NCBI GenBank assembly: GCA_964547465.1
Contig: CAZJNI010000002.1
Span: forward strand, 6,043-70,042
DNA length: 64,000 nt
Direction: 5' to 3'
Source: an uncultured Gammaproteobacteria bacterium
Lineage (GTDB): Bacteria; Patescibacteriota; Microgenomatia; Daviesbacterales; UBA10151
Of this stretch, positions 10,783 through 34,185 are shown one piece after another. A program made the translations under genes and the position numbers. Positions within the stretch are counted from its first letter, which is position 1. Each line of letters starts with the position of its first letter. The notes under the pieces were generated by a model. The model saw nothing but the letters and a program-made list of their open reading frames with translations, had not been told where the DNA came from and ran no database searches.

Positions 10783-11988
10783 ATGAAACAACTTATCAAA
10801 AAAGTTATTTCTCAAAAAATTATAAATATTTTTTATCATTTGCCAAAAGCAGTTTTAGCAAATATTTGGTATGGTTTCCCCACAAGAGGACTTAAGGTTA
10901 TTGGAGTAACCGGAACTGATGGTAAAACAACAACTGTTAATATGATTTATCAGATTTTAAAAGCTGCTGGTAAAAAGGTTTCCATGGTTTCAACTGTAAA
11001 TGCATTTGTAGCAGAAAAATCCTATGATACAGGTTTTCATGTTACCTCACCTGATCCATTCATGGTGCAAAGGTTTGCCAAGCGAGCACTTAATATTGGA
11101 GACGAGTATCTGGTGTTGGAGGTTACCTCGCATGCCCTAGATCAGTATAGATTTTGGGGAATAAAATTTGACGTAGGAATTATTACAAATATTACCCATG
11201 AACATTTGGATTACCATAAAACATTTGAAAATTATTTAAACACAAAGGTAAATTTATTGAAGAATGTAAGATTCGCAATGATTAATCAGAATTTAAGGGA
11301 AAAAATTAAAGAGAAAGTCAGAGGTAAGATTATTACTTTTGGAATAAATTCCGGGGATTTTAATCAAAAAAATGTAAAGTTAAATTTAAAAATACCAGGC
11401 GATTACAATATAGAAAATGCCTTAGCAGCTTTGGCTGTAGCTTTTAGTTTAAATATAGATAAAAAAATTGCCATAAAGAGTCTGGAGAATTTTGAGGGGG
11501 TTAAGGGTAGGATGGAATTTATAAAAAATAAAAAAGGAATTAAAATTGTGATTGATTTTGCCCATACTCCAAATGGTTTAGAGCAAGCTCTAAATTCCCT
11601 GCGTTCCCAAATTCAAAGTGGAAAATTGATTTCCCTGATAGGATGTGAGGGATACAGAGATGTGGGCAAAAGAGAGATGATGGGAGAGGTAGCTCAAAGG
11701 TTATCTGACATAGTAATTGTAACTGCAGTTGACCCAAGAGGACAGCTGGATACTATTAATAGACAGATTACTAAAGGAGCAGAAAAAAAAGGAGCAAAAA
11801 AAGAAATTAATTTTTTTATAATTAATGACCGGGAAAAAGCAATAGACTTGGCCATAAACAGTCTGGCAAAAAGAGGAGACATAGTTGGAATTTTCGGAAA
11901 AGGGCATGAAAATTCCATGAATTTGGATGGAAAAAAGGAAATTCCTTGGTCTGATGTTGAAGTAGTGCAAAAAGATTTGAATGGATAA
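10783..11988 (+). CDS. murE: Mur ligase, MurE-like (short form lacking the N-terminal domain)
   Basis: VIGVTGTDGKTTT P-loop of the Mur ligase central domain. Position after ftsI in the dcw cluster. Confidence 0.65.
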   Translation: MKQLIKKVISQKIINIFYHLPKAVLANIWYGFPTRGLKVIGVTGTDGKTTTVNMIYQILKAAGKKVSMVSTVNAFVAEKSYDTGFHVTSPDPFMVQRFAKRALNIGDEYLVLEVTSHALDQYRFWGIKFDVGIITNITHEHLDYHKTFENYLNTKVNLLKNVRFAMINQNLREKIKEKVRGKIITFGINSGDFNQKNVKLNLKIPGDYNIENALAALAVAFSLNIDKKIAIKSLENFEGVKGRMEFIKNKKGIKIVIDFAHTPNGLEQALNSLRSQIQSGKLISLIGCEGYRDVGKREMMGEVAQRLSDIVIVTAVDPRGQLDTINRQITKGAEKKGAKKEINFFIINDREKAIDLAINSLAKRGDIVGIFGKGHENSMNLDGKKEIPWSDVEVVQKDLNG

Positions 11989-12598
11989 TAAGCAAAGCTT
12001 GCCTTCGCATGGCGAAGGTAAATATAAACTAATTATAGATTCTTTTGGAAAGGAGAGATTTAAGTTTGATGAACCAATCAAAAATTATACTGCTTTTAAC
12101 ATCGGCGGGCCGGCAAAATTATTTTTTATAGCCTTCACAATACAAGAATTAATTAAAATTATATCTCAGTGCCGGGATTTAAACCTTCCTTATTTTTTAT
12201 TTGGTACTGGTAGCAAAATTATGATTTCAGATCAGGGATTTGATGGATTGGTAATAAAAAATAGGACTAAAAATATTCAAACAATTTCTGTTAAAGGTAA
12301 GGTGTCAAGACTGGGCATAGGGGTAGAGGAAGCATTAATAGAGGTAGAATCAGGGGTTAGTATGAATAAGTTAGCTGAAGATCTGGATACACAGAACCTT
12401 TTGTCTGATGGGCTTAAAGGCATATCCGGAAGCATAGGTGGGAATCTGTTTATTAGTGCATTTTTGCAAAATATGGCCAAAAGTATTAAAGTATTGGATC
12501 AAGACTCAAAAGTTGAGGAGATAGAACCTGGAACTTTAAGTCCTAAAAGGCATATAATTTTATCAGCAGTTTTTAAGGTTAAGGCAAAAAATTTATGA
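11981..12598 (+). CDS. murB: MurB-like UDP-N-acetylenolpyruvoylglucosamine reductase, short form (205 aa)
   Basis: FNIGGPAKLF..ELIKIISQCRDLNLPYFLFGTGSKIMISDQGFDGLVIKN resembles the MurB FAD-binding N-terminus. Protein is about 100 aa shorter than typical MurB. Confidence 0.45.
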   Translation: MDNKQSLPSHGEGKYKLIIDSFGKERFKFDEPIKNYTAFNIGGPAKLFFIAFTIQELIKIISQCRDLNLPYFLFGTGSKIMISDQGFDGLVIKNRTKNIQTISVKGKVSRLGIGVEEALIEVESGVSMNKLAEDLDTQNLLSDGLKGISGSIGGNLFISAFLQNMAKSIKVLDQDSKVEEIEPGTLSPKRHIILSAVFKVKAKNL

Positions 12599-12681
12599 AA
12601 TACGAAATTATTGGTGGAAAAAGACTATCTGGAGATATCATGGTCTCCGGAAATGAGCACAGCTCTTTCCTAGATTGTTAA
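12595..12681 (+). pseudogene. Duplicated 5' fragment of murA forming a 28-codon ORF (MKYEIIGGKRLSGDIMVSGNEHSSFLDC); its ATG overlaps the murB-like stop (ATGA)
   Basis: About 80% nt identity to the first ~66 nt of murA at 12692 (MKYQIIGGKKLSGEIMVSGNKNS). Seen directly in sequence. Confidence 0.5.
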
Positions 12682-12691
12682 TGGAGTAAGT

Positions 12692-13948
12692 ATGAAATAC
12701 CAAATTATTGGGGGTAAAAAGTTGTCAGGAGAAATCATGGTGTCCGGAAATAAAAACTCAATATTTCCAGCTATTGCTGCAGCTTTATTAACCAAAGATG
12801 AAGTTGTTTTAGAAAATATTTCTAAAATAAGTGATGTTGAAGTACTGGTGGAGATTTTAAAAAAATTAGGTGCTGATATAAAGAGAGAAGATTCAACTAT
12901 TATTATAAAGGCTGAAAATATTAAGATCAGCAGTTTATCTCAAAATTTGATGAGCAAGCTGCGAGGCTCGATTGTGCTAGTTGGGGCGATTTTGGCAAGA
13001 TTAGGCAAGGTTAATTTCTATCATCCTGGAGGAGATATTATTGGTCAAAGGAATATTAGCTCTCACCTGGAAGGATTTAAAAAACTTGGTGCAACTTTAA
13101 AAAAATCAGATTTGAAATTTTCGCTGCAGCTTTCAGATGATATTAAGGAAAATTGTACAATTTTTTTACGGGAGTCTTCTGTAACTGCTGCTGAAAACTT
13201 AATATTAGCGTCAGCTTTGGGTAAAAGAAAAGTAACTTTAAAAAATTGTCCGGTTGAACCTCACATTCAGGATCTTTGCAAACTACTTCTTCAAATGGGT
13301 GCAAAAATTAAGGGGATTGGATCTCACAGTCTTGAAATTGAGGGAGTGAGTGAGCTTTATGGAACCCACTTTAAAATAGGAATAGATTATATTGAAGTGG
13401 GTACATATGCAGTAGCAGCAGCAATAACAGGAGGTAAGATTAATATAAAAGGAGTTGATGAGACAGATTTGGATCCCATATTTGAACCTTTATCGAAATT
13501 CGGAATAAAGGTAGAAAAAAAAGAGGACGGAGTAATCGTTTGGACAGAAAAATTAAAATCTGTTCCAAAAATTATTACAAATATTTGGCCGGGTTTCCCG
13601 ACAGATTTAATGAGTGTTGTTATAGTGTTGGCAACACAGAGTAAAGGTGTAACGCTTTGTCATGATTGGATGTATGAATCCAGGATGTTTTTTGTTGATA
13701 AGTTAATTTCAATGGGAGCAAAAATTACTCTTGCTGATCCGCATCGTAGTTTGGTCTACGGACCTGCTAAACTTCATGGAAGGTCATTGGAAACCCCGGA
13801 TATCAGAGCAGGCATGGCGTTGGTTTTAGCAAGCTTGGTTGCTAGGGGTAAAAGTACTATCAATCAGGCAGAATTAATTGAAAGGGGTTACGAGGATGTT
13901 GTAGGGAAGCTAAAAAGTATCGGGGCAGATATAAGAAAAGAGACATAG
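12692..13948 (+). CDS. murA: UDP-N-acetylglucosamine 1-carboxyvinyltransferase MurA
   Basis: EPSP-synthase fold MurA N-terminus MKYQIIGGKKLSGEIMVSGNKNS. 418 aa. Confidence 0.9.
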   Translation: MKYQIIGGKKLSGEIMVSGNKNSIFPAIAAALLTKDEVVLENISKISDVEVLVEILKKLGADIKREDSTIIIKAENIKISSLSQNLMSKLRGSIVLVGAILARLGKVNFYHPGGDIIGQRNISSHLEGFKKLGATLKKSDLKFSLQLSDDIKENCTIFLRESSVTAAENLILASALGKRKVTLKNCPVEPHIQDLCKLLLQMGAKIKGIGSHSLEIEGVSELYGTHFKIGIDYIEVGTYAVAAAITGGKINIKGVDETDLDPIFEPLSKFGIKVEKKEDGVIVWTEKLKSVPKIITNIWPGFPTDLMSVVIVLATQSKGVTLCHDWMYESRMFFVDKLISMGAKITLADPHRSLVYGPAKLHGRSLETPDIRAGMALVLASLVARGKSTINQAELIERGYEDVVGKLKSIGADIRKET

Positions 13949-16134: not shown

Positions 16135-17231
16135 TGAATCAATTAAGAGTAAGCTTGCAATTACAAAAGAGACAATTTGATCTGATACTTATTTCTGTAG
16201 TTGGAATTTTAGTCATATTTGGTCTTGTAATGGTATATGATGCTTCAGCAATTCAGGGGTTGCGGGATTTTAAGGACAGCTATTATTACATAAGACAGCA
16301 GTTAATTTGGGTCGTGTTAGGGTTATTTTCTCTTTTTTTCTTCTCTTTTTTTAAATACACCAAATTTAAAAAAATAGCCTTTCCTTTACTTTTAATTTCA
16401 CTTGGGCTTCTAGTGGCAGTTTTCATTCCAGGCCTCGGGATTTCTGGAGGAGGAGCACATAGATGGTTAAAGTTGGGTCCTGGAACTATTCAGCCAGCTG
16501 AAATAATAAAACTTACCGGAGTAATTTTTCTCTCTGCCATATTTGAGAAAAGAACCAGGATATTACCATTTTTAATTCTCTTGGGAATCGTTACGCTAAC
16601 TACAGCTGTTCTACAGAAAGATTTAGGTTCAACTATAGTCTTTGTGTTAACATCTTTAATTATATATTTCGGAAGCGGTGGCGCAATTTGGCATCTCCTT
16701 GCAATTTTACCAATAGGAGTTGTTGGGTTTTTAGGGTTAGTTCTTACTTCAAGTTATAGAAGCAAAAGAATCTTAGCTTTCTTAGATCCATTTTCTGATA
16801 CTCAAGGTTTCACTTATCATATCTCACAGGTTTTAATTGCTTTGGGATCTGGAGGTTTTCTAGGGTTAGGTTTAGGTCATTCCAGACAAAAATTTGAATA
16901 TATTCCAGAGGTGACAACTGATTCCATTTTTGGAATAGTGGGAGAGGAGTTAGGTTTTCTTGGGTCTATATTTTTAATTACCCTATTTGTAATTTTAATT
17001 TTAAGAGGACTTAGGATTTCCAAAGAATGTCCAGACAGGTTCGGTAAAATTCTCTCATTAGGTTTGACAACCTGGTTAGGCTTACAAGCGGCAATTAATC
17101 TTTCATCAATGATTGCTCTGCTGCCTTTAACTGGGGTACCTCTTCCCTTTATCTCATATGGAGGTTCAGCACTTTTGGTAAATCTGACTGCTGTTGGAAT
17201 ATTAATTAACATTTCCAAGCAATCTGCCTGA
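16134..17231 (+). CDS. ftsW: SEDS-family peptidoglycan glycosyltransferase FtsW
   Basis: Ten-TM SEDS pattern with a conserved end (PLPFISYGGSALL). Position between mraY and murG. Confidence 0.8.
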   Translation: MNQLRVSLQLQKRQFDLILISVVGILVIFGLVMVYDASAIQGLRDFKDSYYYIRQQLIWVVLGLFSLFFFSFFKYTKFKKIAFPLLLISLGLLVAVFIPGLGISGGGAHRWLKLGPGTIQPAEIIKLTGVIFLSAIFEKRTRILPFLILLGIVTLTTAVLQKDLGSTIVFVLTSLIIYFGSGGAIWHLLAILPIGVVGFLGLVLTSSYRSKRILAFLDPFSDTQGFTYHISQVLIALGSGGFLGLGLGHSRQKFEYIPEVTTDSIFGIVGEELGFLGSIFLITLFVILILRGLRISKECPDRFGKILSLGLTTWLGLQAAINLSSMIALLPLTGVPLPFISYGGSALLVNLTAVGILINISKQSA

Positions 17232-17252
17232 TTTTTTGAGTATAATCAAAAT

Positions 17253-17987
17253 ATGAAGATATTTTTGACGGGACATAAGGGTTATTTGGGAAGTGAATTC
17301 GTAAAACGTTATGGTAATAAGTATGAAATAGTAGGTTATGATCGTAAGGAAGGTGATGAACTGCTAGATTATGATAATCTGAAAAAGAAAATAAAAGGCT
17401 GTCAGCAAGTTGTTCATCTGGCTGCTATCCCTAAGCCTATGGAAGGTAAAGTATTTGAAGAATACTTTGATAATAATGTTAGGACCGTATTAAATATTGT
17501 AAAAGCTGCTGTTGAAAGTAATCTTAAAAGGATAATTTATGCAAGTTCGACAACTATATATGGAATAGAGAAAGGTATCCCATTTAAAATTCCTATCAAC
17601 GAAGACCAACTTTTTGTATCCCAGTATATTTCGGTAGATCAATTAACGTGTCGGGATGTTGACCTTTCTTATCATATTAGTAAAGTAATGGCAGAACAAA
17701 TTATGGCCTGGTATGGTTTAAATAAGAAGATTCAAACCATAGCTTTACGCTTTGGTCCTATTAATAAAGTATTTTTAGGAACGAGTGTTAGCATTAATAA
17801 TGCAACTCAAGCTATAAAATTAGCAATAGATTATACTGGTGAACTTTGGTATGAACCGTTTAGTATTGTGGATGAGCTTCTGCACATTAGCATAAGGAAA
17901 GCCAGAGACATCTTAGGATATAGCCCGAAAAAAACTAATTATACTCCTGAGCAAATTCATTCAACTCTGGAAGAGAGAACAAGGTAA
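17253..17987 (+). CDS. NAD-dependent epimerase/dehydratase family protein (short)
   Basis: N-terminal GHKGYLGSEF (GxxGxxG) Rossmann motif. YxxxK (YHISK). 244 aa. Confidence 0.6.
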   Translation: MKIFLTGHKGYLGSEFVKRYGNKYEIVGYDRKEGDELLDYDNLKKKIKGCQQVVHLAAIPKPMEGKVFEEYFDNNVRTVLNIVKAAVESNLKRIIYASSTTIYGIEKGIPFKIPINEDQLFVSQYISVDQLTCRDVDLSYHISKVMAEQIMAWYGLNKKIQTIALRFGPINKVFLGTSVSINNATQAIKLAIDYTGELWYEPFSIVDELLHISIRKARDILGYSPKKTNYTPEQIHSTLEERTR

Positions 17988-27890: not shown

Positions 27891-28736
27891 ATGGATGAAT
27901 CTATCTATGAGTTGGAAATAGACCTGCTGCAGCCAAATCCCCTGCAGCCAAGAGGATTGATCACACCGGAATCTTTATCTGAACTGGCAGAATCTATCAG
28001 GGCGCATGGAATTTTAGAGCCTATTGTGGTTGCTAAAACTCCTGCCGGTTATCAAATTATTGCAGGGGAGCGAAGATGGAGAGCTTCCAAAGTTGTGGGT
28101 ATTCCTAAGGTTCCGGTGATAATCCGGGAAACCACTCCGCAGGGTATGCTGGAGATGGCTATTGTAGAAAATGTTCAAAGGATAGATTTAAATCCGCTGG
28201 AGAGGGCCCAAGCTTACAAAAGATTAATGGATGAATTTACGCTAACTAATGCAGAAATTTCAGAAAGAGTTTCAAAAAGTCCATCCTATATTTCCAACAC
28301 AATAAGACTGCTGACCCTGCCTGATGCGCTTAAGGATGCCTTAATGTCCGGGGCCACCACAGAAGGTCATGCCAGAGCTTTAGCAGCCCTGGAGGATCCA
28401 CACCTTATTATAGAGGCTTATAAAGAAGTATTAAAAAGAAATCTATCTGTCAGGGGTACAGAGGATTTGGTTAGAAGGTTTAGGGCAAAGGAAGGAATCG
28501 GGCCTAAGAGGGCAGCTACTATTGAGACAATGCATATACTTTCAGAAGAATTGGATCGGGTGCAAAATGATTTAAGTTCTGCCTTGTCTAAAAAAGTAGA
28601 TAGGGCAGAAGTAAAGTGTTCACAAACCGGTCAAAAGGCAAAAGTGGAGTTATTATTGGAAGGAAATCCGGAAAAAACTACACCTGCCTTGGAAGATATA
28701 AGAGCGGCAATAGTTGGTTATTTTAATCTTTCGTAG
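27891..28736 (+). CDS. parB: ParB/Spo0J-family partition protein
   Basis: ParB box GILEPIVVAKTPAGYQIIAGERRWRAS. Confidence 0.85.
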   Translation: MDESIYELEIDLLQPNPLQPRGLITPESLSELAESIRAHGILEPIVVAKTPAGYQIIAGERRWRASKVVGIPKVPVIIRETTPQGMLEMAIVENVQRIDLNPLERAQAYKRLMDEFTLTNAEISERVSKSPSYISNTIRLLTLPDALKDALMSGATTEGHARALAALEDPHLIIEAYKEVLKRNLSVRGTEDLVRRFRAKEGIGPKRAATIETMHILSEELDRVQNDLSSALSKKVDRAEVKCSQTGQKAKVELLLEGNPEKTTPALEDIRAAIVGYFNLS

Positions 28737-28742
28737 AACTGA

Positions 28743-29336
28743 TTATTTGTTAGTTAAAAGTCCAACGCTCGGAGGTGGCCAGTATCTAAAAAAAGCTCTT
28801 CCCACAATCTCTTCTTTGGTTACCGCTCCCCATTCTCTTGAATCAGATGAGTGTTCTCTATTATCCCCAAAAACAAAATATTGATTAGGCCCGGCTTTAA
28901 CTGTTGAACCTTCCAGAAGAAATGACCCTCCATTTGTATGGATCCCTGCAGGTAAAAATGGTTGAGAGATTATCTCATCATTTACAGAAACCGTGTTATC
29001 TGCCACTTTTATTGTATCCCCGGGGACTGCCATTATTCTTTTGATAAAATCTTGAGATTCATCCCTGGGGTTTTTTAAAACAATGATGTCTCCCTTCTTC
29101 GGTGAACCAAATCTATAACTTATTTTTTCGGTAATAATATAATCCCCATTTTGCAGGGTCGGGATCATGGAGCTTCCGGAAACTTTATGAAATTGGGCAA
29201 TAAATAAATAAATAATGAAAAAAATTGCGACACAAACAACAACAGTCTCAATAATTTCTATAAAATAGCCGCCTAATTTATTAAAAAAGCCTTTTTCTTC
29301 CCCATACCCATAACTTGTATAACCTTCAGGATCCAT
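28743..29336 (-). CDS. lepB: Signal peptidase I (S26)
   Basis: SGSSMIPTL catalytic Ser box. N-terminal TM. Confidence 0.85.
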   Translation of the reverse strand: MDPEGYTSYGYGEEKGFFNKLGGYFIEIIETVVVCVAIFFIIYLFIAQFHKVSGSSMIPTLQNGDYIITEKISYRFGSPKKGDIIVLKNPRDESQDFIKRIMAVPGDTIKVADNTVSVNDEIISQPFLPAGIHTNGGSFLLEGSTVKAGPNQYFVFGDNREHSSDSREWGAVTKEEIVGRAFFRYWPPPSVGLLTNK

Positions 29337-29401
29337 TCTTAAGATTATCGCAAAATTTCAGGTTGTGATGCAAGTACTACGGTGCTAAAATGACTTCTAA
29401 T

Positions 29402-29487
29402 GGAGTCATAGCTCAGTTGGTTTACCCGTTCAAATTTTTGCAGAGCAAAAACTTGCGCGGGTAAAGAGCGCCGCATTCATCCGCGCG
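29402..29487 (+). pseudogene. Degenerate tRNA-Val-like 5' fragment (acceptor 5' arm plus D-arm) with a ~43-nt hairpin inserted in the D-loop; not a functional tRNA
   Basis: GGAGTCATAGCTCAGTTGGTT matches the start of tRNA-Val at 29778 (GGACAAGTAGCTCAGTTGGTT). An inserted imperfect hairpin at 29422-29464 is followed by a non-pairing anticodon-arm-like stretch. No 3' acceptor complement. Confidence 0.35.
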
Positions 29488-29523
29488 AATCTTAACAGAT
29501 TCGATCGGATTCACATATAAAAT

Positions 29524-29787
29524 ATGTATTATGTATACGTTCTTAGGAGCTTAAAGGATGGAAAGTTATATTCTGGGTATACATCCAATTTGAAGCAAAG
29601 ATTGGAATACCATAATAATGGTAAGGTAGAATCTACTAAATGGAGAAAACCTTTTGAGTTGATCTATTTTGAAGGGTATAATCATCATCAAGATGCAACT
29701 GCAAGAGAAAAGTTCTTTAAGACGCAATGGGGTAGGAATTATATAAGGAGGGTGTTAAAGAATTATTGGAAAGAAATGGACAAGTAG
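29524..29787 (+). CDS. Small GIY-YIG nuclease-domain protein (YhbQ/UPF0213-like); stop codon overlaps the first 10 nt of tRNA-Val
   Basis: YVYVLRS..DGKLYSGYTSNLKQRLEYHNNG is a GIY-YIG motif. 87 aa. Confidence 0.75.
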   Translation: MYYVYVLRSLKDGKLYSGYTSNLKQRLEYHNNGKVESTKWRKPFELIYFEGYNHHQDATAREKFFKTQWGRNYIRRVLKNYWKEMDK

Positions 29788-29851
29788 CTCAGTTGGTTAG
29801 AGCGTCGCATTCACATTGCGAAGGCCACAGGTCCGAGTCCTGTCTTGTCCA
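29778..29851 (+). tRNA. tRNA-Val (anticodon CAC)
   Basis: Manual fold: acceptor GGACAAG/CTTGTCC, D-arm GCTC..GAGC, anticodon stem TCGCA/TGCGA with loop TTCACAT, T-arm ACAGG-TCCGAGT-CCTGT. No encoded CCA. Confidence 0.8.
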
Positions 29852-29852
29852 C

Positions 29853-31502
29853 TTACAGGGATTTTGTTCGATTATTGTAGTATTCAGCAACTTTTTCATC
29901 AGTTGTGTACCATCTTCCTAAAAACCAAACAGCATCCAGTCTACCTCCATGTGCATGCGGGACAAGTGATTTATCAAAACTTGCAACCCTTTTGATTCCT
30001 GCTGGATAAATAATTTTATTCTCAATAGCTTTTCTAGCGATTGATAAAGCACCTGTAATACTATCTTCAGATTTGTCTAACCCCTTTTCTATATCAGTAC
30101 TTTTTTTGCCCTGCAGCTTTAAATTAACAATTTCTAATATGTAGGGAGACAAATTTACCTCTCTGATTTTCAGCCATTCATTAAATTGTCTTAGAAAAAT
30201 ATCAACTGCCAACTCAAAGTTATCTGGTTGAGGTAAATGACGTCTTTTTTTCCGAGGTAGCCTATGATCAGAAATGGCTTTAGCAGTCTTAAAAAACCAA
30301 TTCCGAAAATTCTCATGAGAATCATTTTCTGGCATATTCTCTAACTCAACTGCAGAAAAAAGTTCAATCTGTCTTTGTGATATTGAATTGATTACTTCAA
30401 TAGGTCTAATATTATTTTGTGACGCTGTGTAAGTAGTTAAAAATTCTTTCGCATCTTCTGGTTTAATAAACCACCAGCTACCTTTTTTAACTCCTGGTAA
30501 ATATCCGCTTGCTAGTGCCTCTGTTAATCTATTTTTCACAGCAGGAGTAGCTGGAAAATCACTTACTTGTTGATATTCTTTTCCGGGAGATTTTATTCTT
30601 CTTTTCGCTCTAATTCTTTTACTTCTAAATTCATTCAACCCTTCTTGGGTGATATAGATCCTTCCTTGAGTTCGGGTTAAAAGATGTTTATATCTAAATC
30701 CTAATAGGGTTCCATACTCATCTGACGTTGTTTGTTCAGCAAGAGGTAAAAATCCTTGTTCCAGCATTGATGTACTTAGTGTAACTCTTTTATAATGATA
30801 TCTTTGCACCCATTCATCCGTTGTATACCAGCGTCCTAGAAATTTTACTGCTTCTAAACCACCTCTGCTAGCTGCTGTTGCTAGGGAGCCATCTTGATAA
30901 TCAGCTAGTAGTCTAAATCCAGCTGGATAGAATAGATTTCCTTCAATTTTGTCTCTTGCCCTATACATTAAATTAAGTACTGCCCGTTGGGTAGATCCTA
31001 ACTCGTCTATAATTTCAGATATTCCTTTACCCGCTGTTCTTAGTTCTACAGCTTTTAATTGGGCGGGGGTTAGTAATTCGGTAAGTCTATCTTTAAACCT
31101 TGGCATCAAATCTATGAAAGTAGTCTCTGTTCTCTCTTTTGGTTGCCTAACAAAAGTATCCTCAAAAGATACACCACGTGTCCTGATAATTCTCCTTAAC
31201 TCCATATTTATATTTGCTCTAGCTATAGTAAATGTCCACTTGATAAATGTCTTTGTTGGATCCTTACCTTTCAGATCAAACTCAAAAGACGGAAGAGCAG
31301 CATACATTTCTGAAAGAGTATCTTGGGTAAGGTCTTCAGCTTCGTTTGGAAGACGACGTACTAAATATCTAAATAATTCTGGTCTTAAAAAACCATCTAA
31401 TTCAGCAAAAGCCCGCTCATCTCCAGCTTTTATTCTCTTAACCACCAATGGTATATCAATTGAAGGTTTTGGTGTCCCTCTGCCTTCTGCTTCTAAAGTC
31501 AT
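29853..31502 (-). CDS. ECF-type sigma-70 family factor (regions 2 and 4) fused to a ~350-aa extension. The extension carries a second region-4-like HTH, and each HTH is followed by a repeated YPAG[FI]..GG.L.AV.FLGRWYTTDE module
   Basis: Region 2: AGDERAFAEL..LFRYLVRRLPNEAEDLTQDT..WTFTIARAN. Region 4: LTPAQLKAVELRTAGKGISEIIDELGSTQRAVLNLMYRARDKI. Internal duplication seen directly in the translation. Confidence 0.6.
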   Translation of the reverse strand: MTLEAEGRGTPKPSIDIPLVVKRIKAGDERAFAELDGFLRPELFRYLVRRLPNEAEDLTQDTLSEMYAALPSFEFDLKGKDPTKTFIKWTFTIARANINMELRRIIRTRGVSFEDTFVRQPKERTETTFIDLMPRFKDRLTELLTPAQLKAVELRTAGKGISEIIDELGSTQRAVLNLMYRARDKIEGNLFYPAGFRLLADYQDGSLATAASRGGLEAVKFLGRWYTTDEWVQRYHYKRVTLSTSMLEQGFLPLAEQTTSDEYGTLLGFRYKHLLTRTQGRIYITQEGLNEFRSKRIRAKRRIKSPGKEYQQVSDFPATPAVKNRLTEALASGYLPGVKKGSWWFIKPEDAKEFLTTYTASQNNIRPIEVINSISQRQIELFSAVELENMPENDSHENFRNWFFKTAKAISDHRLPRKKRRHLPQPDNFELAVDIFLRQFNEWLKIREVNLSPYILEIVNLKLQGKKSTDIEKGLDKSEDSITGALSIARKAIENKIIYPAGIKRVASFDKSLVPHAHGGRLDAVWFLGRWYTTDEKVAEYYNNRTKSL

Positions 31503-31518
31503 GAGATCATTATATAAA

Positions 31519-31641
31519 ATGCCTATTTATAGTCAAATTAATTACATAAATCATTACGGTAAACCTCAAGATATAGAGTGGGCAATTGATGATCAGGGGA
31601 AAATTTGGATTCTTCAGTCAAGGCCAATAACTACGCTTTAA
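31519..31641 (+). pseudogene. Relic of a PEP-utilizing enzyme ATP-grasp (PPDK_N-type) gene: only the domain's C-terminal signature survives
   Basis: GKPQDIEWAIDDQGKIWILQSRPITTL matches the conserved DIEWA...G.LYILQ.RPIT end of the PPDK_N domain. Compare YEWMVDGGVKLIGIKPYTP in the 59525 ORF. The upstream part of the ORF is antisense to the sigma-like gene. Confidence 0.45.
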
Positions 31642-31696
31642 ATTTTTATATATCTACTTATCCCATATCAGGTATGAGGATAAAGATTGAGAGATA

Positions 31697-32524
31697 TTAT
31701 TTCAATTTCTTTATTGATGCACTTCCAACAAGCGATTGCATTTGTGTAATAGCAACCTCATTTAGTTGTATTAAACGCTTACTTTGGGATAGACCAAGCC
31801 GGATAAGTTCGGCATTTATACCTTCCAAATTTGCCAATACCACCAATTGAGTTACATCTGCCCAGTCGCGGATATTGCCGTTTTTATTATGATTTTCATC
31901 TCGCCACTCCTTAGCTGTTTTTCCAAACAGCGCCATGTTGAGTACGTCTGCTTCACTGGCATAGATTACATTGGTTGATTGCTTTGATAGTTGGGGAGGG
32001 ATCAAGTACGCTTTAACCGCATCAGTTTGAATCTTGTAGTTAATTTTTGCCAAAGTCCGTTTTATATCCCAACCCAAGGCTAAGCGTTGATTTTCTTCCT
32101 CTTTTAATCGTTGAAACTCTTTAATGAGAAACAGCTTGAATTCAGCGCTAATCCAACTAGCAAACTCAAAAGCAATATCTTTATGAGCGAAAGTGCCGCC
32201 GCCATATCTACCTGATTTAGAAGTCATACCTGTCGCAGCAGTAGAATCTATCCATTTTTGGGGAGAAAGGACAAATGAATTGCTTCCTGATTCATTTTTA
32301 AACCCGTCGAATTCGACCAGTTTAAAATTTGGGTTGTTTATCTTCTCCCATAAACCAAGAAATTCAATAGTACTATGGGTTCTCATCCAATTTTTTACAA
32401 CATCTGCAGGCGCATCTTTGTTTTTCAGCTTGGCAATATCAGTGAGAGAAATGAAGTCTCCCTGATCCTTTTTTAGTATATAGATCTGTATGCCCTTGGT
32501 AATTATCTTTTTCATTTTAGGCAT
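31697..32524 (-). CDS. KilA-N domain protein (phage/mobile-element-associated DNA-binding family)
   Basis: N-terminal YILKKDQGDFISLTDIAK...THSTIEFLGLWE. Central GGGTFAHKDIAFEFASWISAEFKLFLIKEFQRLKEEE is typical of KilA-N/DinD-like proteins. Confidence 0.6.
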   Translation of the reverse strand: MPKMKKIITKGIQIYILKKDQGDFISLTDIAKLKNKDAPADVVKNWMRTHSTIEFLGLWEKINNPNFKLVEFDGFKNESGSNSFVLSPQKWIDSTAATGMTSKSGRYGGGTFAHKDIAFEFASWISAEFKLFLIKEFQRLKEEENQRLALGWDIKRTLAKINYKIQTDAVKAYLIPPQLSKQSTNVIYASEADVLNMALFGKTAKEWRDENHNKNGNIRDWADVTQLVVLANLEGINAELIRLGLSQSKRLIQLNEVAITQMQSLVGSASIKKLK

Positions 32525-32664
32525 ATCTATACTTTATAACCAAATAATACCCGAAGTCAATAGAGAAAGTAGACCCACAAAAGCTAAAACTACTACAAAA
32601 GTTAATATGAAATTGTGCTAATTATTGTTAAAATAGTTGTCTAGAGATAATTTCTTCTAGGCCA

Positions 32665-34185
32665 ATGTATAAAATTTCAAAAAATATCCTTTATAATTTT
32701 TCGGGGCAAGTAACTCTACTAATTTTAACTATAGTTACAGCTCCCTTTATTATAAATTCCCTGGGTCATGATAAATATGGTATTTTTACTTTGGCTATTA
32801 CAGTTGTGGGTTATTTTTCTATTTTGGACTTAGGATTAGGTACCTCAATCATTAAATTTATATCAGATTCCCATTCAAGGCAGGATAAAGAGTCTTTAGA
32901 AAAAATTATCAACACCTCTTTAACTTCTTATACGGTAATTGGATTTTTGGGGGCAGTTTTGATTATATTATCTACTCAATTTATTGTAAGAGGGGCTCTG
33001 CATATTCCTTTAACCTTAATTCCCTTGGCCTTATCGGTTTTCTATATTAGTTCATTAGGTTTTTTTGTAAATATGATTTTGACAGTTTTTAATAGCATAC
33101 CTATTGCTTTAGAACGGATGGATATTACAAATAGCAGAAATATTATCTTTGGTCTTTTAAATACTTTAGGTATTGTTATACTTTTGATCCTTGGTCAGGA
33201 TCTTCTGACAGTAATTATATGGAGTATTTTAGTTTCAGTAGTCGCAACAGTAAGTTTTCTAAAGATAATTTTTGACCTTTTACCAAATATTAAGATAAAG
33301 TTTGGTTTTGATAAAGAAATATTTGTTAGGTTAATAAAATTTGGACTGTTTAAATCTATAGTTAATATAAGCGGTCAAATTGTTTTTCAGTTAGACAGAC
33401 TACTAATTGGTATTTTCCTTCCTATTGCATCTGTTACCTTTTATACTGTCCCTGCTATTTTGGCCCAAAGAGGTTTTTCAATACTCTTTAATGTTACAAG
33501 CGCTTTCTTTCCGGCTATTAGCTTCTCTCAAGCTAAGGATGATAAACAAAGAGTAAAAGATTTATATCTCCGTATGACAAAAATAATCATTTTGCTGATC
33601 TCCCCCCTTATGGCAATTATTTTTCTCCTTGCAGAAGATATTTTAGAGATTTGGTTAGGGTCTCAGTTTGCGTACCAAAGTACCTCAACCCTAAAAATAT
33701 TAACATTAGCTTATTTTCTAGCAGCTTTTTCTGCTCCGGGAGTAATTGTTTCAGATGCATCTAACAAACCTCAAATTCCAGCTATTTTTTCGATATTTAG
33801 TGCTGCGATAAACTTGATAGCAGCATTAATTTTAATACCGGTATTAGGCATAGAAGGTGCCGCTTGGGCACTCGTTATAAATTTTGCGGTTCAAGTTCCT
33901 GTATTTTTAATGATTGTTCATAAAAAAGTTCTAGGGATATCTCATCTTACTGTTATTGCTCAGTCAATAATAAAACCATTATTATCCGGGATTACTACAG
34001 CAGTAATTTTATATACCGCACTTAACTTCATTGATAGTCCAATCCAGCGTTTAGTAGCTATACCTATTCTTTTTGGTTTATTGTATATAGTTATAAACTA
34101 TCTTATTGGTACATTTGATGAGAGAGATAAGTTAATGGTTTTATTTTTTATAAACAGGTTTAAATTAATATTTCAAAGAAAATAA
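32665..34185 (+). CDS. Oligosaccharide flippase (Wzx/MOP superfamily, polysaccharide biosynthesis protein)
   Basis: About 14 predicted TM helices over 506 aa. Sits in a glycan-synthesis neighbourhood. Confidence 0.65.
   Translation: MYKISKNILYNFSGQVTLLILTIVTAPFIINSLGHDKYGIFTLAITVVGYFSILDLGLGTSIIKFISDSHSRQDKESLEKIINTSLTSYTVIGFLGAVLIILSTQFIVRGALHIPLTLIPLALSVFYISSLGFFVNMILTVFNSIPIALERMDITNSRNIIFGLLNTLGIVILLILGQDLLTVIIWSILVSVVATVSFLKIIFDLLPNIKIKFGFDKEIFVRLIKFGLFKSIVNISGQIVFQLDRLLIGIFLPIASVTFYTVPAILAQRGFSILFNVTSAFFPAISFSQAKDDKQRVKDLYLRMTKIIILLISPLMAIIFLLAEDILEIWLGSQFAYQSTSTLKILTLAYFLAAFSAPGVIVSDASNKPQIPAIFSIFSAAINLIAALILIPVLGIEGAAWALVINFAVQVPVFLMIVHKKVLGISHLTVIAQSIIKPLLSGITTAVILYTALNFIDSPIQRLVAIPILFGLLYIVINYLIGTFDERDKLMVLFFINRFKLIFQRK

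Follow-up and report, generated by a model that had tools for sequence, protein, structure and literature searches.

A putative tRNA-targeting GIY-YIG/tRNA cassette within a patchwork accessory region at a tRNA-Val locus of Candidatus Daviesbacteria

Introduction

The GIY-YIG nuclease SegB cuts inside tRNA genes, co-localises with phage tRNAs and drives the amplification of tRNA-segB tandem units, which are underlain by a reported microhomology between the 3' end of segB and the 5' end of the tRNA (PMC13096335). Here we analysed a 64-kb stretch of DNA (the window) from a member of Candidatus Daviesbacteria (Microgenomates, Candidate Phyla Radiation (CPR)), in which a patch of accessory material (positions 29402-32524) lies at the tRNA-Val gene that follows lepB. 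The left part of this patch holds a minimal GIY-YIG open reading frame (ORF) fused in frame to a complete tRNA-Val gene. The closest precedent of this GIY-YIG/tRNA cassette is SegB, a free-standing homing endonuclease of phages T4 and T6 (Brok-Volchanskaya 2008; PMC13096335).

Like segB, the window ORF is a GIY-YIG gene among tRNA genes, its family is statistically associated with tRNAs and forms tRNA/nuclease units, and the mechanism proposed below would resemble the intronless homing of SegB. The family also shows a sporadic distribution, presence and absence at a fixed site, and degenerate copies. On the other hand, SegB is a full-size enzyme of phage genomes, whereas the window ORF encodes a bare catalytic domain of 87 aa in a cellular CPR genome. 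SegB carries a DNA-binding region. Furthermore, the window ORF is fused in frame to its tRNA, with U8-A9-G10 as the stop codon, and in cassette loci a hairpin-bearing tRNA 5' fragment precedes the ORF and resident tRNA genes are split.

Other described systems resemble the locus in part. Stand-alone Slx1-like GIY-YIG proteins match the window protein in size and in consisting of the catalytic domain only, but the family was described as cellular and ancestral, with no tRNA-linked or mobile arrangement (PMC1564403). Group I-type tRNA introns share with the cassette the insertions in CPR tRNA loops and the linkage of homing-endonuclease genes to tRNA genes. However, Rfam gave no intron signal in 28500-33500, the interrupted tRNA copy lacks a 3' half and cannot splice, and a second, complete gene rather than splicing maintains tRNA function. 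Islands and prophages that target tRNAs likewise place accessory genes and a partial tRNA copy beside a tRNA, but the patch has no integrase and the window no 3'-end repeat, and the partial copy is the 5' part of another allele. The literature searches made for a description of a GIY-YIG/tRNA cassette gave none; the cassette is recurrent and apparently undescribed.

Results

A GIY-YIG reading frame runs into an intact tRNA-Val

The window ParB is 87% identical to ParB of MFCV01000048, and the window was compared with 80 ParB-anchored loci from related genomes (loci and assemblies carry L numbers). An original prediction, made from the sequence of the window, had listed five unusual objects in the patch: a tRNA-Val pseudo-copy with a hairpin insertion, a GIY-YIG gene, a 549-aa fusion protein related to extracytoplasmic function (ECF) sigma factors, the C-terminal signature of a PPDK_N gene without a gene body, and a KilA-N gene. 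ARAGORN, Rfam, Pfam and ORF checks recovered all five (Table 1). They make up at least two unrelated things, a left module (29402-29852) and a right module (29853-32524).

The ORF of the left module matched the GIY-YIG profile PF01541 with 59 bits against a cut-off of 22.6, over residues 1-70 of 87, and Y16, G18, T20, R26 and E62 are invariant among seven cassette ORFs. The Pfam scan gave no further domain in the protein, such as a DNA-binding or specificity domain. The ORF has no stop codon of its own: it traverses positions 1-7 of the intact tRNA-Val(CAC) downstream (copy B) and ends on a TAG formed by tRNA positions U8-A9-G10, which bears out the overlap of stop codon and tRNA start that had been predicted. 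Copy B is closest to the tRNA of L033 (95% identical), whose ParB is 73% identical to that of the window, but only 71-77% identical to the tRNAs of L006 and L007, where ParB identity is 85%. From this comparison, copy B was probably imported together with the GIY-YIG ORF.

Upstream of the ORF lies a remnant of the resident tRNA-Val (copy A). Its tRNA positions 1-21, 21-35 and 32-38 fall at 29402-29422, 29464-29479 and 29510-29516, respectively, and without the two hairpins in between it matches positions 1-38 of the L040 tRNA-Val at 38 of 39 aligned positions. The predicted pseudo-copy is real in this sense, with two hairpin insertions and not one. Copy A begins 65 nt from lepB, the same distance as tRNA-Val in L009, L024 and L026. 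The promoter-like sequence before it has counterparts in relatives, where a GGTTGTGA..TAAAAT motif also lies 5' of tRNA-Val, and on this similarity it is the ancestral tRNA-Val promoter, now ahead of copy A. No complete cloverleaf was called in copy A by ARAGORN or Rfam (E up to 10), and its 3' half is absent; a by-eye check of 29853-29900 for a resident 3' remnant after copy B gave only a chance GTTCGATT and no T arm. Judged by the acceptor strand, which reads GGAGTCA in copy A and GGACAAG in copy B, copy A represents the 5' portion of another tRNA-Val allele.

The two hairpins of copy A (HP1 and HP2) fold strongly, with z of about -5.6. HP1 belongs to a repeat family of the form ACCCG..CAAATTTTG..CAAAATTTG..CGGGT, and an HP1-type hairpin occupies the identical D-loop slot in L085, L086, L087, L089, L095 and L055. 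L055 also has two HP1-family hairpins in the leader or 5' untranslated region (UTR) of a LysM-domain gene, far from GIY-YIG ORFs. Their neighbours are a fragment of a tRNA 3' end and an ORF that shows LAGLIDADG-like motifs, the whole group lying at L055 16904-16992 (minus strand) and 17152-17892, and the L055 genome seems rich in selfish elements.

An Rfam scan of 28500-33500 (E up to 10) for a group I intron gave only the intact tRNA and chance matches, without a 3' exon. Within the GIY-YIG ORF, about 95 nt 5' of the intact tRNA, there is a promoter-like TTGAGT-17-TATAAT (10/12; 29654-29682, plus strand). It could provide copy B with its own transcription start, and it is not conserved in L055.

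The design recurs at six tRNA isotypes

A family search of 85 sequences gave eight GIY-YIG ORFs, five of which end exactly 9 nt into a same-strand tRNA: those of the window, L055 and L022 (Val), L006 (Gly-CCC) and L044 (Asp). The other three comprise one that runs off its locus, one that follows a complete tRNA-Asp and also runs off (L016), and a decayed one that abuts tRNA-Gly (L019). The stop codon lies on tRNA positions 8-10 in these five and in L085, L086 and L158 as well, and by our reading of L089 a TAA stands at the matching place if the tRNA starts one base after the ARAGORN call. All of these phase-exact ORFs traverse tRNA positions 1-7 and lack a stop codon of their own. In L072, tblastn detected a decayed GIY-YIG fragment (residues 46-85) ending on tRNA-Val. 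The cassette is found with six isotypes, namely Val, Gly-CCC, Gly-GCC, Asp, Ile and Lys.

A metagenome scan with an alignment of three GIY-YIG sequences gave 79 homologues. The three closest are all tRNA-associated: L085 (76%, Val), L086 (77%, Ile-GAT) and L087 (71%, Ile-GAT, with a premature stop). A same-strand tRNA lies at most 120 nt downstream of 13 of the 79 homologues, compared with 0.54 expected (p = 1e-14). Furthermore, 7 of 19 GIY-adjacent tRNAs, versus 5 of 159 others, had 12 nt or more of their own 5' end repeated in the 400 nt upstream (Fisher p = 3e-5). No Rfam RNA was found near 20 GIY-YIG homologues without a neighbouring tRNA.

Members of the window clade have a common layout with Val, Ile and Lys tRNAs, that is, isotype-specific tRNA positions 1-20, GGTT, a hairpin, AAGA(G/A)C, a few to 50 nt, and the ATG. 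The hairpin reads (T/C)ACCCG..CAAATTTTG..CAAAATTTG..CGGGT(A/G), and AAGA(G/A)C is the 3' strand of the D stem. The window departs from this layout only by its longer copy A, which extends to position 38, and by the second hairpin. Other GIY-YIG subfamilies have different hairpins in the D-loop slot, for example in L147 (Gln), L150 (Thr), L044 (Asp) and L022 (Val). In L016 (20510-20843), the order is complete tRNA-Asp, hairpin, a second fragment of a tRNA 3' end (GGCCCGCCA) and the GIY-YIG ORF that runs off the locus end; this looks like a tandem state of the cassette, tRNA-ORF or possibly tRNA-ORF-tRNA.

Presence, absence and decay of the ORF bear on whether the GIY-YIG gene is simply a host gene, co-transcribed with tRNAs and acting in repair or in RNA or tRNA metabolism, with the fragments left by local tandem duplication and decay and no mobility. 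Stand-alone Slx1-like GIY-YIG proteins are widespread in bacteria, and their fusion to TrmH, the tRNA Gm18 methyltransferase, is on record (PMC1564403). The 5' ends of A and B are identical in L085, L147, L150, L044 and L022, as tandem duplication predicts, and L016 has a complete tRNA followed by the ORF. Nevertheless, the gene is patchy across the 57 syntenic loci, being present or absent between genomes with 99% identical ParB, decayed copies exist, and the same cassette is found at six tRNA isotypes. Moreover, A and B represent different alleles in the window and in L086/L087, and the latter two have the 3' half that matches A on the far side of B. We therefore give an immobile host gene only a minor chance.

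Gain, loss and split resident tRNA genes

The order ParB (plus strand), LepB (minus strand), tRNA-Val(CAC) (plus strand) is kept in about 57 loci of Daviesbacteria, Curtissbacteria, Amesbacteria and relatives. Among these, a GIY-YIG ORF lies between lepB and tRNA-Val in four: the window, L022, L055 and, in decayed form, L072. Decayed ORFs were also seen in L087 and L019. L020 and L022 have ParB proteins that are 99% identical and flanks that are nearly so, yet a 297-nt segment of hairpins and ORF is present in L022 only. Ahead of the tRNA, L022 carries a 12-nt tRNA fragment, the hairpins and the ORF, whereas L020 has only GGGTGCTTAGC plus T, an 11-nt tRNA footprint.

The metagenomic loci L086 and L087 preserve both ends of the interrupted gene. 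Their acceptor strands are GGATCGG in copy A and GGGCAGC in copy B, and a 3' fragment (C) beyond B ends in CCGATCC. When positions 1-19 of A are joined to C, a cloverleaf results in L086 and a tRNA-Ile(GAT) in L087; therefore the resident gene was split at about position 20 by the hairpin, the ORF and copy B.

Nesting of tRNA genes also occurs without an ORF. A complete tRNA-Val(CAC) lies inside the anticodon loop of another tRNA-Val in L048 (6158-6337), L051 (11454-11613) and L057 (11406-11565), bounded by inverted repeats of 8-13 bp. Such repeats flank tRNA-Val only in these nested cases and are not a normal tRNA-Val flank. The outer gene of L048 is an intact tRNA-Val(CAC) once the 106-nt insert at position 37/38 is removed. 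We also considered that such arrangements are introns and rejected this reading: the intron mode of ARAGORN mostly merged adjacent tRNAs, and only L048 was convincing. In L055, a tRNA-Val copy comprising positions 8-76 follows copy B; it contains the same D-loop hairpin and shows 89% identity to window 29409-29479, and beyond it lies a further tRNA 3' half from about position 36-37. By our count, tRNA debris surrounds tRNA-Val in about a fifth of loci.

These hairpins and nested genes raise the question of which part is mobile. The hairpins themselves, as palindromic elements or small structured CPR tRNA introns, could be the primary agents that inactivate tRNA genes, with the GIY-YIG ORF and the extra tRNAs as passengers or compensation. 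Many fragments carry hairpins in the D, anticodon and T loops, the sequence of one hairpin family is shared by at least six loci and is present also away from tRNAs, and inverted repeats surround the ORF-less nested tRNA of L048, L051 and L057. In addition, small structured tRNA introns have been reported in CPR, according to the citation of Castelle et al. 2018 in 10.1101/2025.07.03.662931. However, no transposase is associated with the hairpins, in this data set they occur only in dead tRNA copies and never in a sole intact copy, and the phase-exact junction of ORF and tRNA is not accounted for. Primary mobility of the hairpins is thus an unlikely explanation.

Close relatives differ in the acceptor stems and D-loop types of tRNA-Val. 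Across 55 syntenic loci and the window, tRNA-Val identity and ParB identity are essentially uncorrelated (Spearman 0.10), and pairs with ParB at least 85% identical have a median tRNA-Val identity of 76%. Conversely, the tRNAs of L022 and L055 are 97% identical at a ParB identity of 67%. These alignments suggest repeated replacement of the tRNA-Val allele at the lepB locus.

The patch lies in a variable slot after a conserved anchor

The spacing from lepB to tRNA-Val is 48-155 nt in relatives, compared with 441 nt to the intact tRNA in the window. Beyond tRNA-Val, 0-7 kb of variable genes precede a conserved O-antigen-ligase-like gene in relatives. The insert-free order lepB, tRNA-Val, flippase, which was to be looked for according to the original prediction, was found in L019, L014 and L046. 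L019 runs uninterrupted from lepB to tRNA-Val, 22 nt, flippase, methyltransferase and glycosyltransferase, and the patch of the window is therefore inserted material. In the closest relative, L005 (ParB 87%; 10852-12708), the flippase directly follows lepB and tRNA-Val is absent at the locus.

Two Logan short-read assemblies of the same genome, made from other runs, support the arrangement of the window. L164, corresponding to window positions of about 28150-29530, is 100% identical from lepB to the GIY-YIG start, and L001 (29827-31599) is 100% identical over the 549-aa gene, including both junctions. Because these assemblies are independent, the arrangement is not an assembly artefact. Their contig ends fall inside the PPDK_N stump, inside tRNA-Val and at the start of the GIY-YIG ORF, that is, at cassette boundaries, which hints at repeats or strain polymorphism in the sample.

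The right module reflects ordinary turnover

The stop codon of the 549-aa gene abuts the last ARAGORN base of the tRNA with 0 nt between them; the opposite-strand gene was thus correctly predicted, while its gap is not the 2 nt proposed. Its sigma factor part is borderline in profile searches (Sigma70_r2 24.0 against a cut-off of 24, r4_2 below cut-off, TIGR02937 40.9 against 42.9), and its AlphaFold model, with a predicted local distance difference test (pLDDT) score of 76, matches sigma-E, SigW, AlgU and other ECF sigma structures. The 360 extra residues are atypical for an ECF sigma factor. The C-terminus contains a repeat of residues 76-239 (32% identity, E = 1e-20). Residues of about 196-357 and 503-548 hold four small repeated modules, each ending G(R/S)(W/I)(Y/W)..(T/K).E (e.g., GRWYTTDE, GRIYITQE and GSWWFIKPE), which we take to resemble excisionase- or MerR-type winged helices.

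Only five close homologues of this protein were found among 5.8 billion clusters, in contexts that include a type I restriction-modification system, a glycan cluster and a YafQ toxin. No flanking genes are shared among the homologues, and none adjoins a tRNA. A profile search gave a wider family of 68 representatives below 1e-30, mostly of about 365 aa with the sigma module and three small modules. By comparison with these sequences, the window protein is a C-terminally duplicated variant of the family.

The PPDK_N stump, next to the 549-aa promoter, covers only positions 282-311 of the 328 in the profile, and upstream of it the opposite strand is taken up by the 549-aa gene. The stump shows 90% DNA identity (93% in protein) to the last 89 nt of an intact 247-aa gene in L026 (13417-14160), where the order is tRNA-Val, an HD-like gene, a phosphoenolpyruvate (PEP)-utiliser gene and the intact PPDK_N gene. 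The signature without a gene body noted earlier is accordingly a truncated copy of this gene. The homology is limited by the stop codon on one side and ends at about 31540-31551 on the other, beside the 549-aa promoter. From this alignment, at least one event deleted the PPDK_N gene body.

The KilA-N protein is of phage type, as had been proposed. Besides its Pfam score, it matches phrog_2657 (E = 8e-56) and the PADLOC candidate PDC-S22 (E = 3e-130) over its full 275 aa, the defence role of PDC-S22 being that of a candidate, and it is 57% identical to ORF014 of Staphylococcus phage EW and to Streptococcus satellite phage genes. Thousands of homologues with 70-88% identity occur across distant CPR phyla, an unusual degree of conservation, and close ones sit in unrelated contexts; an exact-sequence look-up of the protein gave no record. 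Neither the GIY clade nor the 549-aa family had relatives in IMG/VR, and a phage origin of these two families was rejected; KilA-N does have phage relatives.

Neither the 549-aa gene nor the KilA-N gene has relatives in any of the 80 syntenic loci, and both are accessory. The right module is ordinary turnover in a variable, island-like slot, and as ordinary island content this half of the patch has little significance.

The whole patch might instead be one degraded integrative island, which entered at tRNA-Val by a site-specific recombinase, brought the GIY-YIG, sigma-like and KilA-N genes as cargo and left copy A as the displaced att copy. KilA-N is typical of phages and satellites, the genes are accessory, and a tRNA is the classical integration target. 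However, none of the ORFs in 29.3-32.7 kb encodes an integrase or recombinase. An att-like repeat of the tRNA 3' end was not borne out, since its last 23 nt occur once in the 64-kb window at up to 3 mismatches. There is likewise no break in GC content or skew, and the absence of meaningful direct repeats around the patch, already remarked on, held. Nor is copy A an att-type duplicate: located upstream of the intact tRNA, it is a 5' part, comes from another allele and forms part of a separate GIY-YIG/tRNA cassette found again at other tRNAs and in other genomes. The GIY-YIG/tRNA module also stands alone at many loci, without the other genes of the patch. Such an island, already largely refuted by the lack of an integrase, an att repeat and a compositional break, is very improbable. 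The scar of insertions at a tRNA locus that was proposed earlier therefore stands as inserted accessory material from more than one event, and not as a classical tRNA-integrating island.

Table 1 Features of the patch and its flanks in the window
Feature	Position	Strand	Basis and remarks
lepB, signal peptidase I	28743..29336	-	Pfam Peptidase_S26 E = 8e-48; conserved left anchor
Promoter-like TTGTGA-17-TAAAAT, extended -10	29363..29391	+	Upstream of copy A
Copy A, remnant of resident tRNA-Val(CAC), positions 1-38	29402..29516	+	Match to L040 tRNA-Val
HP1, 41-nt palindromic hairpin	29423..29463	+	D loop of copy A, position 20/21
HP2, 30-nt hairpin	29480..29509	+	Anticodon loop of copy A; TTCA direct repeats on both sides
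87-aa minimal GIY-YIG nuclease ORF	29524..29787	+	Pfam PF01541 E = 5.7e-16
Copy B, intact tRNA-Val(CAC)	29778..29852	+	ARAGORN; Rfam RF00005 71 bits
549-aa protein, ECF-sigma-like N-terminus, repeated small helix/strand modules, C-terminal partial duplication	29853..31502	-	Pfam, TIGR, AlphaFold
Near-consensus promoter TTGACT-16-TATAAT of 549-aa gene	31509..31536	-	At junction with PPDK_N stump
PPDK_N (PEP-utilising, ATP-grasp) 3' stump, last ~33 codons and stop	31540..31641	+	Pfam E = 2.9e-11
KilA-N protein, 275 aa, phage-type regulator	31697..32524	-	Pfam E = 1.9e-19
Polysaccharide flippase, glycan cluster gene 1	32665..34185	+	Pfam Polysacc_synt; right patch boundary

Discussion

Our analyses favour an origin of the patch in several steps. 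We consider it probable, on comparative sequence evidence, that the left module is a selfish GIY-YIG/tRNA cassette that targets tRNA genes and sits in the resident tRNA-Val, and that the right module represents independent turnover of the slot. It is similarly probable that the patch as a whole is an accretion of independent events in a hypervariable slot after the ParB-LepB-tRNA-Val anchor of Microgenomates.

In the mechanism that we propose, the cassette would consist of a stop-less minimal GIY-YIG ORF that continues in frame into the 5' end of a full tRNA-Val gene (copy B). It would have landed in the resident tRNA-Val, of which the first 38 nt (copy A) survive behind the native promoter, and this promoter probably drives copy A, the ORF and copy B as a single transcript. 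Copy B would maintain the supply of tRNA-Val, and therefore disruption of the resident gene would cost nothing. The nuclease is predicted to break tRNA genes that lack the cassette, with the D loop or its vicinity as the most likely site, and repair may then copy the hairpin, ORF and tRNA from a cassette-bearing donor, with the conserved tRNA sequence as the homology arm. Later decay or deletion of the ORF would leave tRNA fragments and hairpins. The split resident tRNAs and the alleles uncoupled from host relatedness are indirect evidence for a putative site-specific cleavage of the gene-less allele followed by gene conversion. As for the right module, the ECF-sigma-like gene with its own promoter and the phage-type KilA-N gene would have arrived in one or more events that removed the PPDK_N gene, the prior occupant of the slot, except for its last 33 codons.

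Several points weigh against the cassette. As a bare catalytic domain without a DNA-binding domain, the 87-aa protein leaves site-specific cleavage unexplained. With its intact D loop, copy B should be open to cleavage too, unless recognition depends on sequence further upstream. In the window, no 3' fragment of the resident tRNA follows copy B, and therefore the nesting is inferred from other loci. The junction of copy A and the ORF ranges from tRNA position 26 to 55 between loci, and 66 of the 79 wider-family homologues do not adjoin a tRNA. Finally, an HP1-family hairpin also occurs in the LysM 5' UTR of L055 and may therefore be an independent small repeat, and a class of introns reported in CPR tRNAs consists of small structured insertions (Castelle 2018, as cited in 10.1101/2025.07.03.662931).

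More tentatively, the cassette could represent an undescribed class of CPR selfish elements, in which a stop-less minimal GIY-YIG ORF borrows the near-universal U8-A9-G10 of a tRNA for its stop codon, enters tRNA loops (typically the D loop at 20/21) beside a palindromic hairpin and, in place of splicing, makes up for the damage with a complete replacement tRNA; we regard such a class as possible but doubtful. The KilA-N protein of the right module, for its part, resembles PDC-S22 and the KilA-N regulators of phrog_2657 along all of its sequence, PDC-S22 being no more than a candidate for phage defence.

The arrangement has consequences for annotation. The coding sequence and the tRNA overlap by 10 nt, tRNA finders miss the hairpin-bearing tRNA fragments, and contigs break at cassettes. 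Because the stop codon lies inside the tRNA, full-length translation would be possible only from transcripts that have not been cut by RNase P, which may be a built-in throttle on the nuclease.

If the proposed mechanism is true, the cassette would be a third route to a harmless homing element: introns and inteins splice, whereas the cassette carries a spare copy of the gene that it disrupts. It would also mean that SegB-like GIY-YIG activity directed at tRNAs is not confined to phages but occurs in cellular genomes of very small gene content. The tRNA halves and hairpins that litter these loci, the tRNA-Val alleles unrelated to host phylogeny and the rapid allelic turnover of tRNA genes in CPR would then be the outcome of recurrent invasion and decay.

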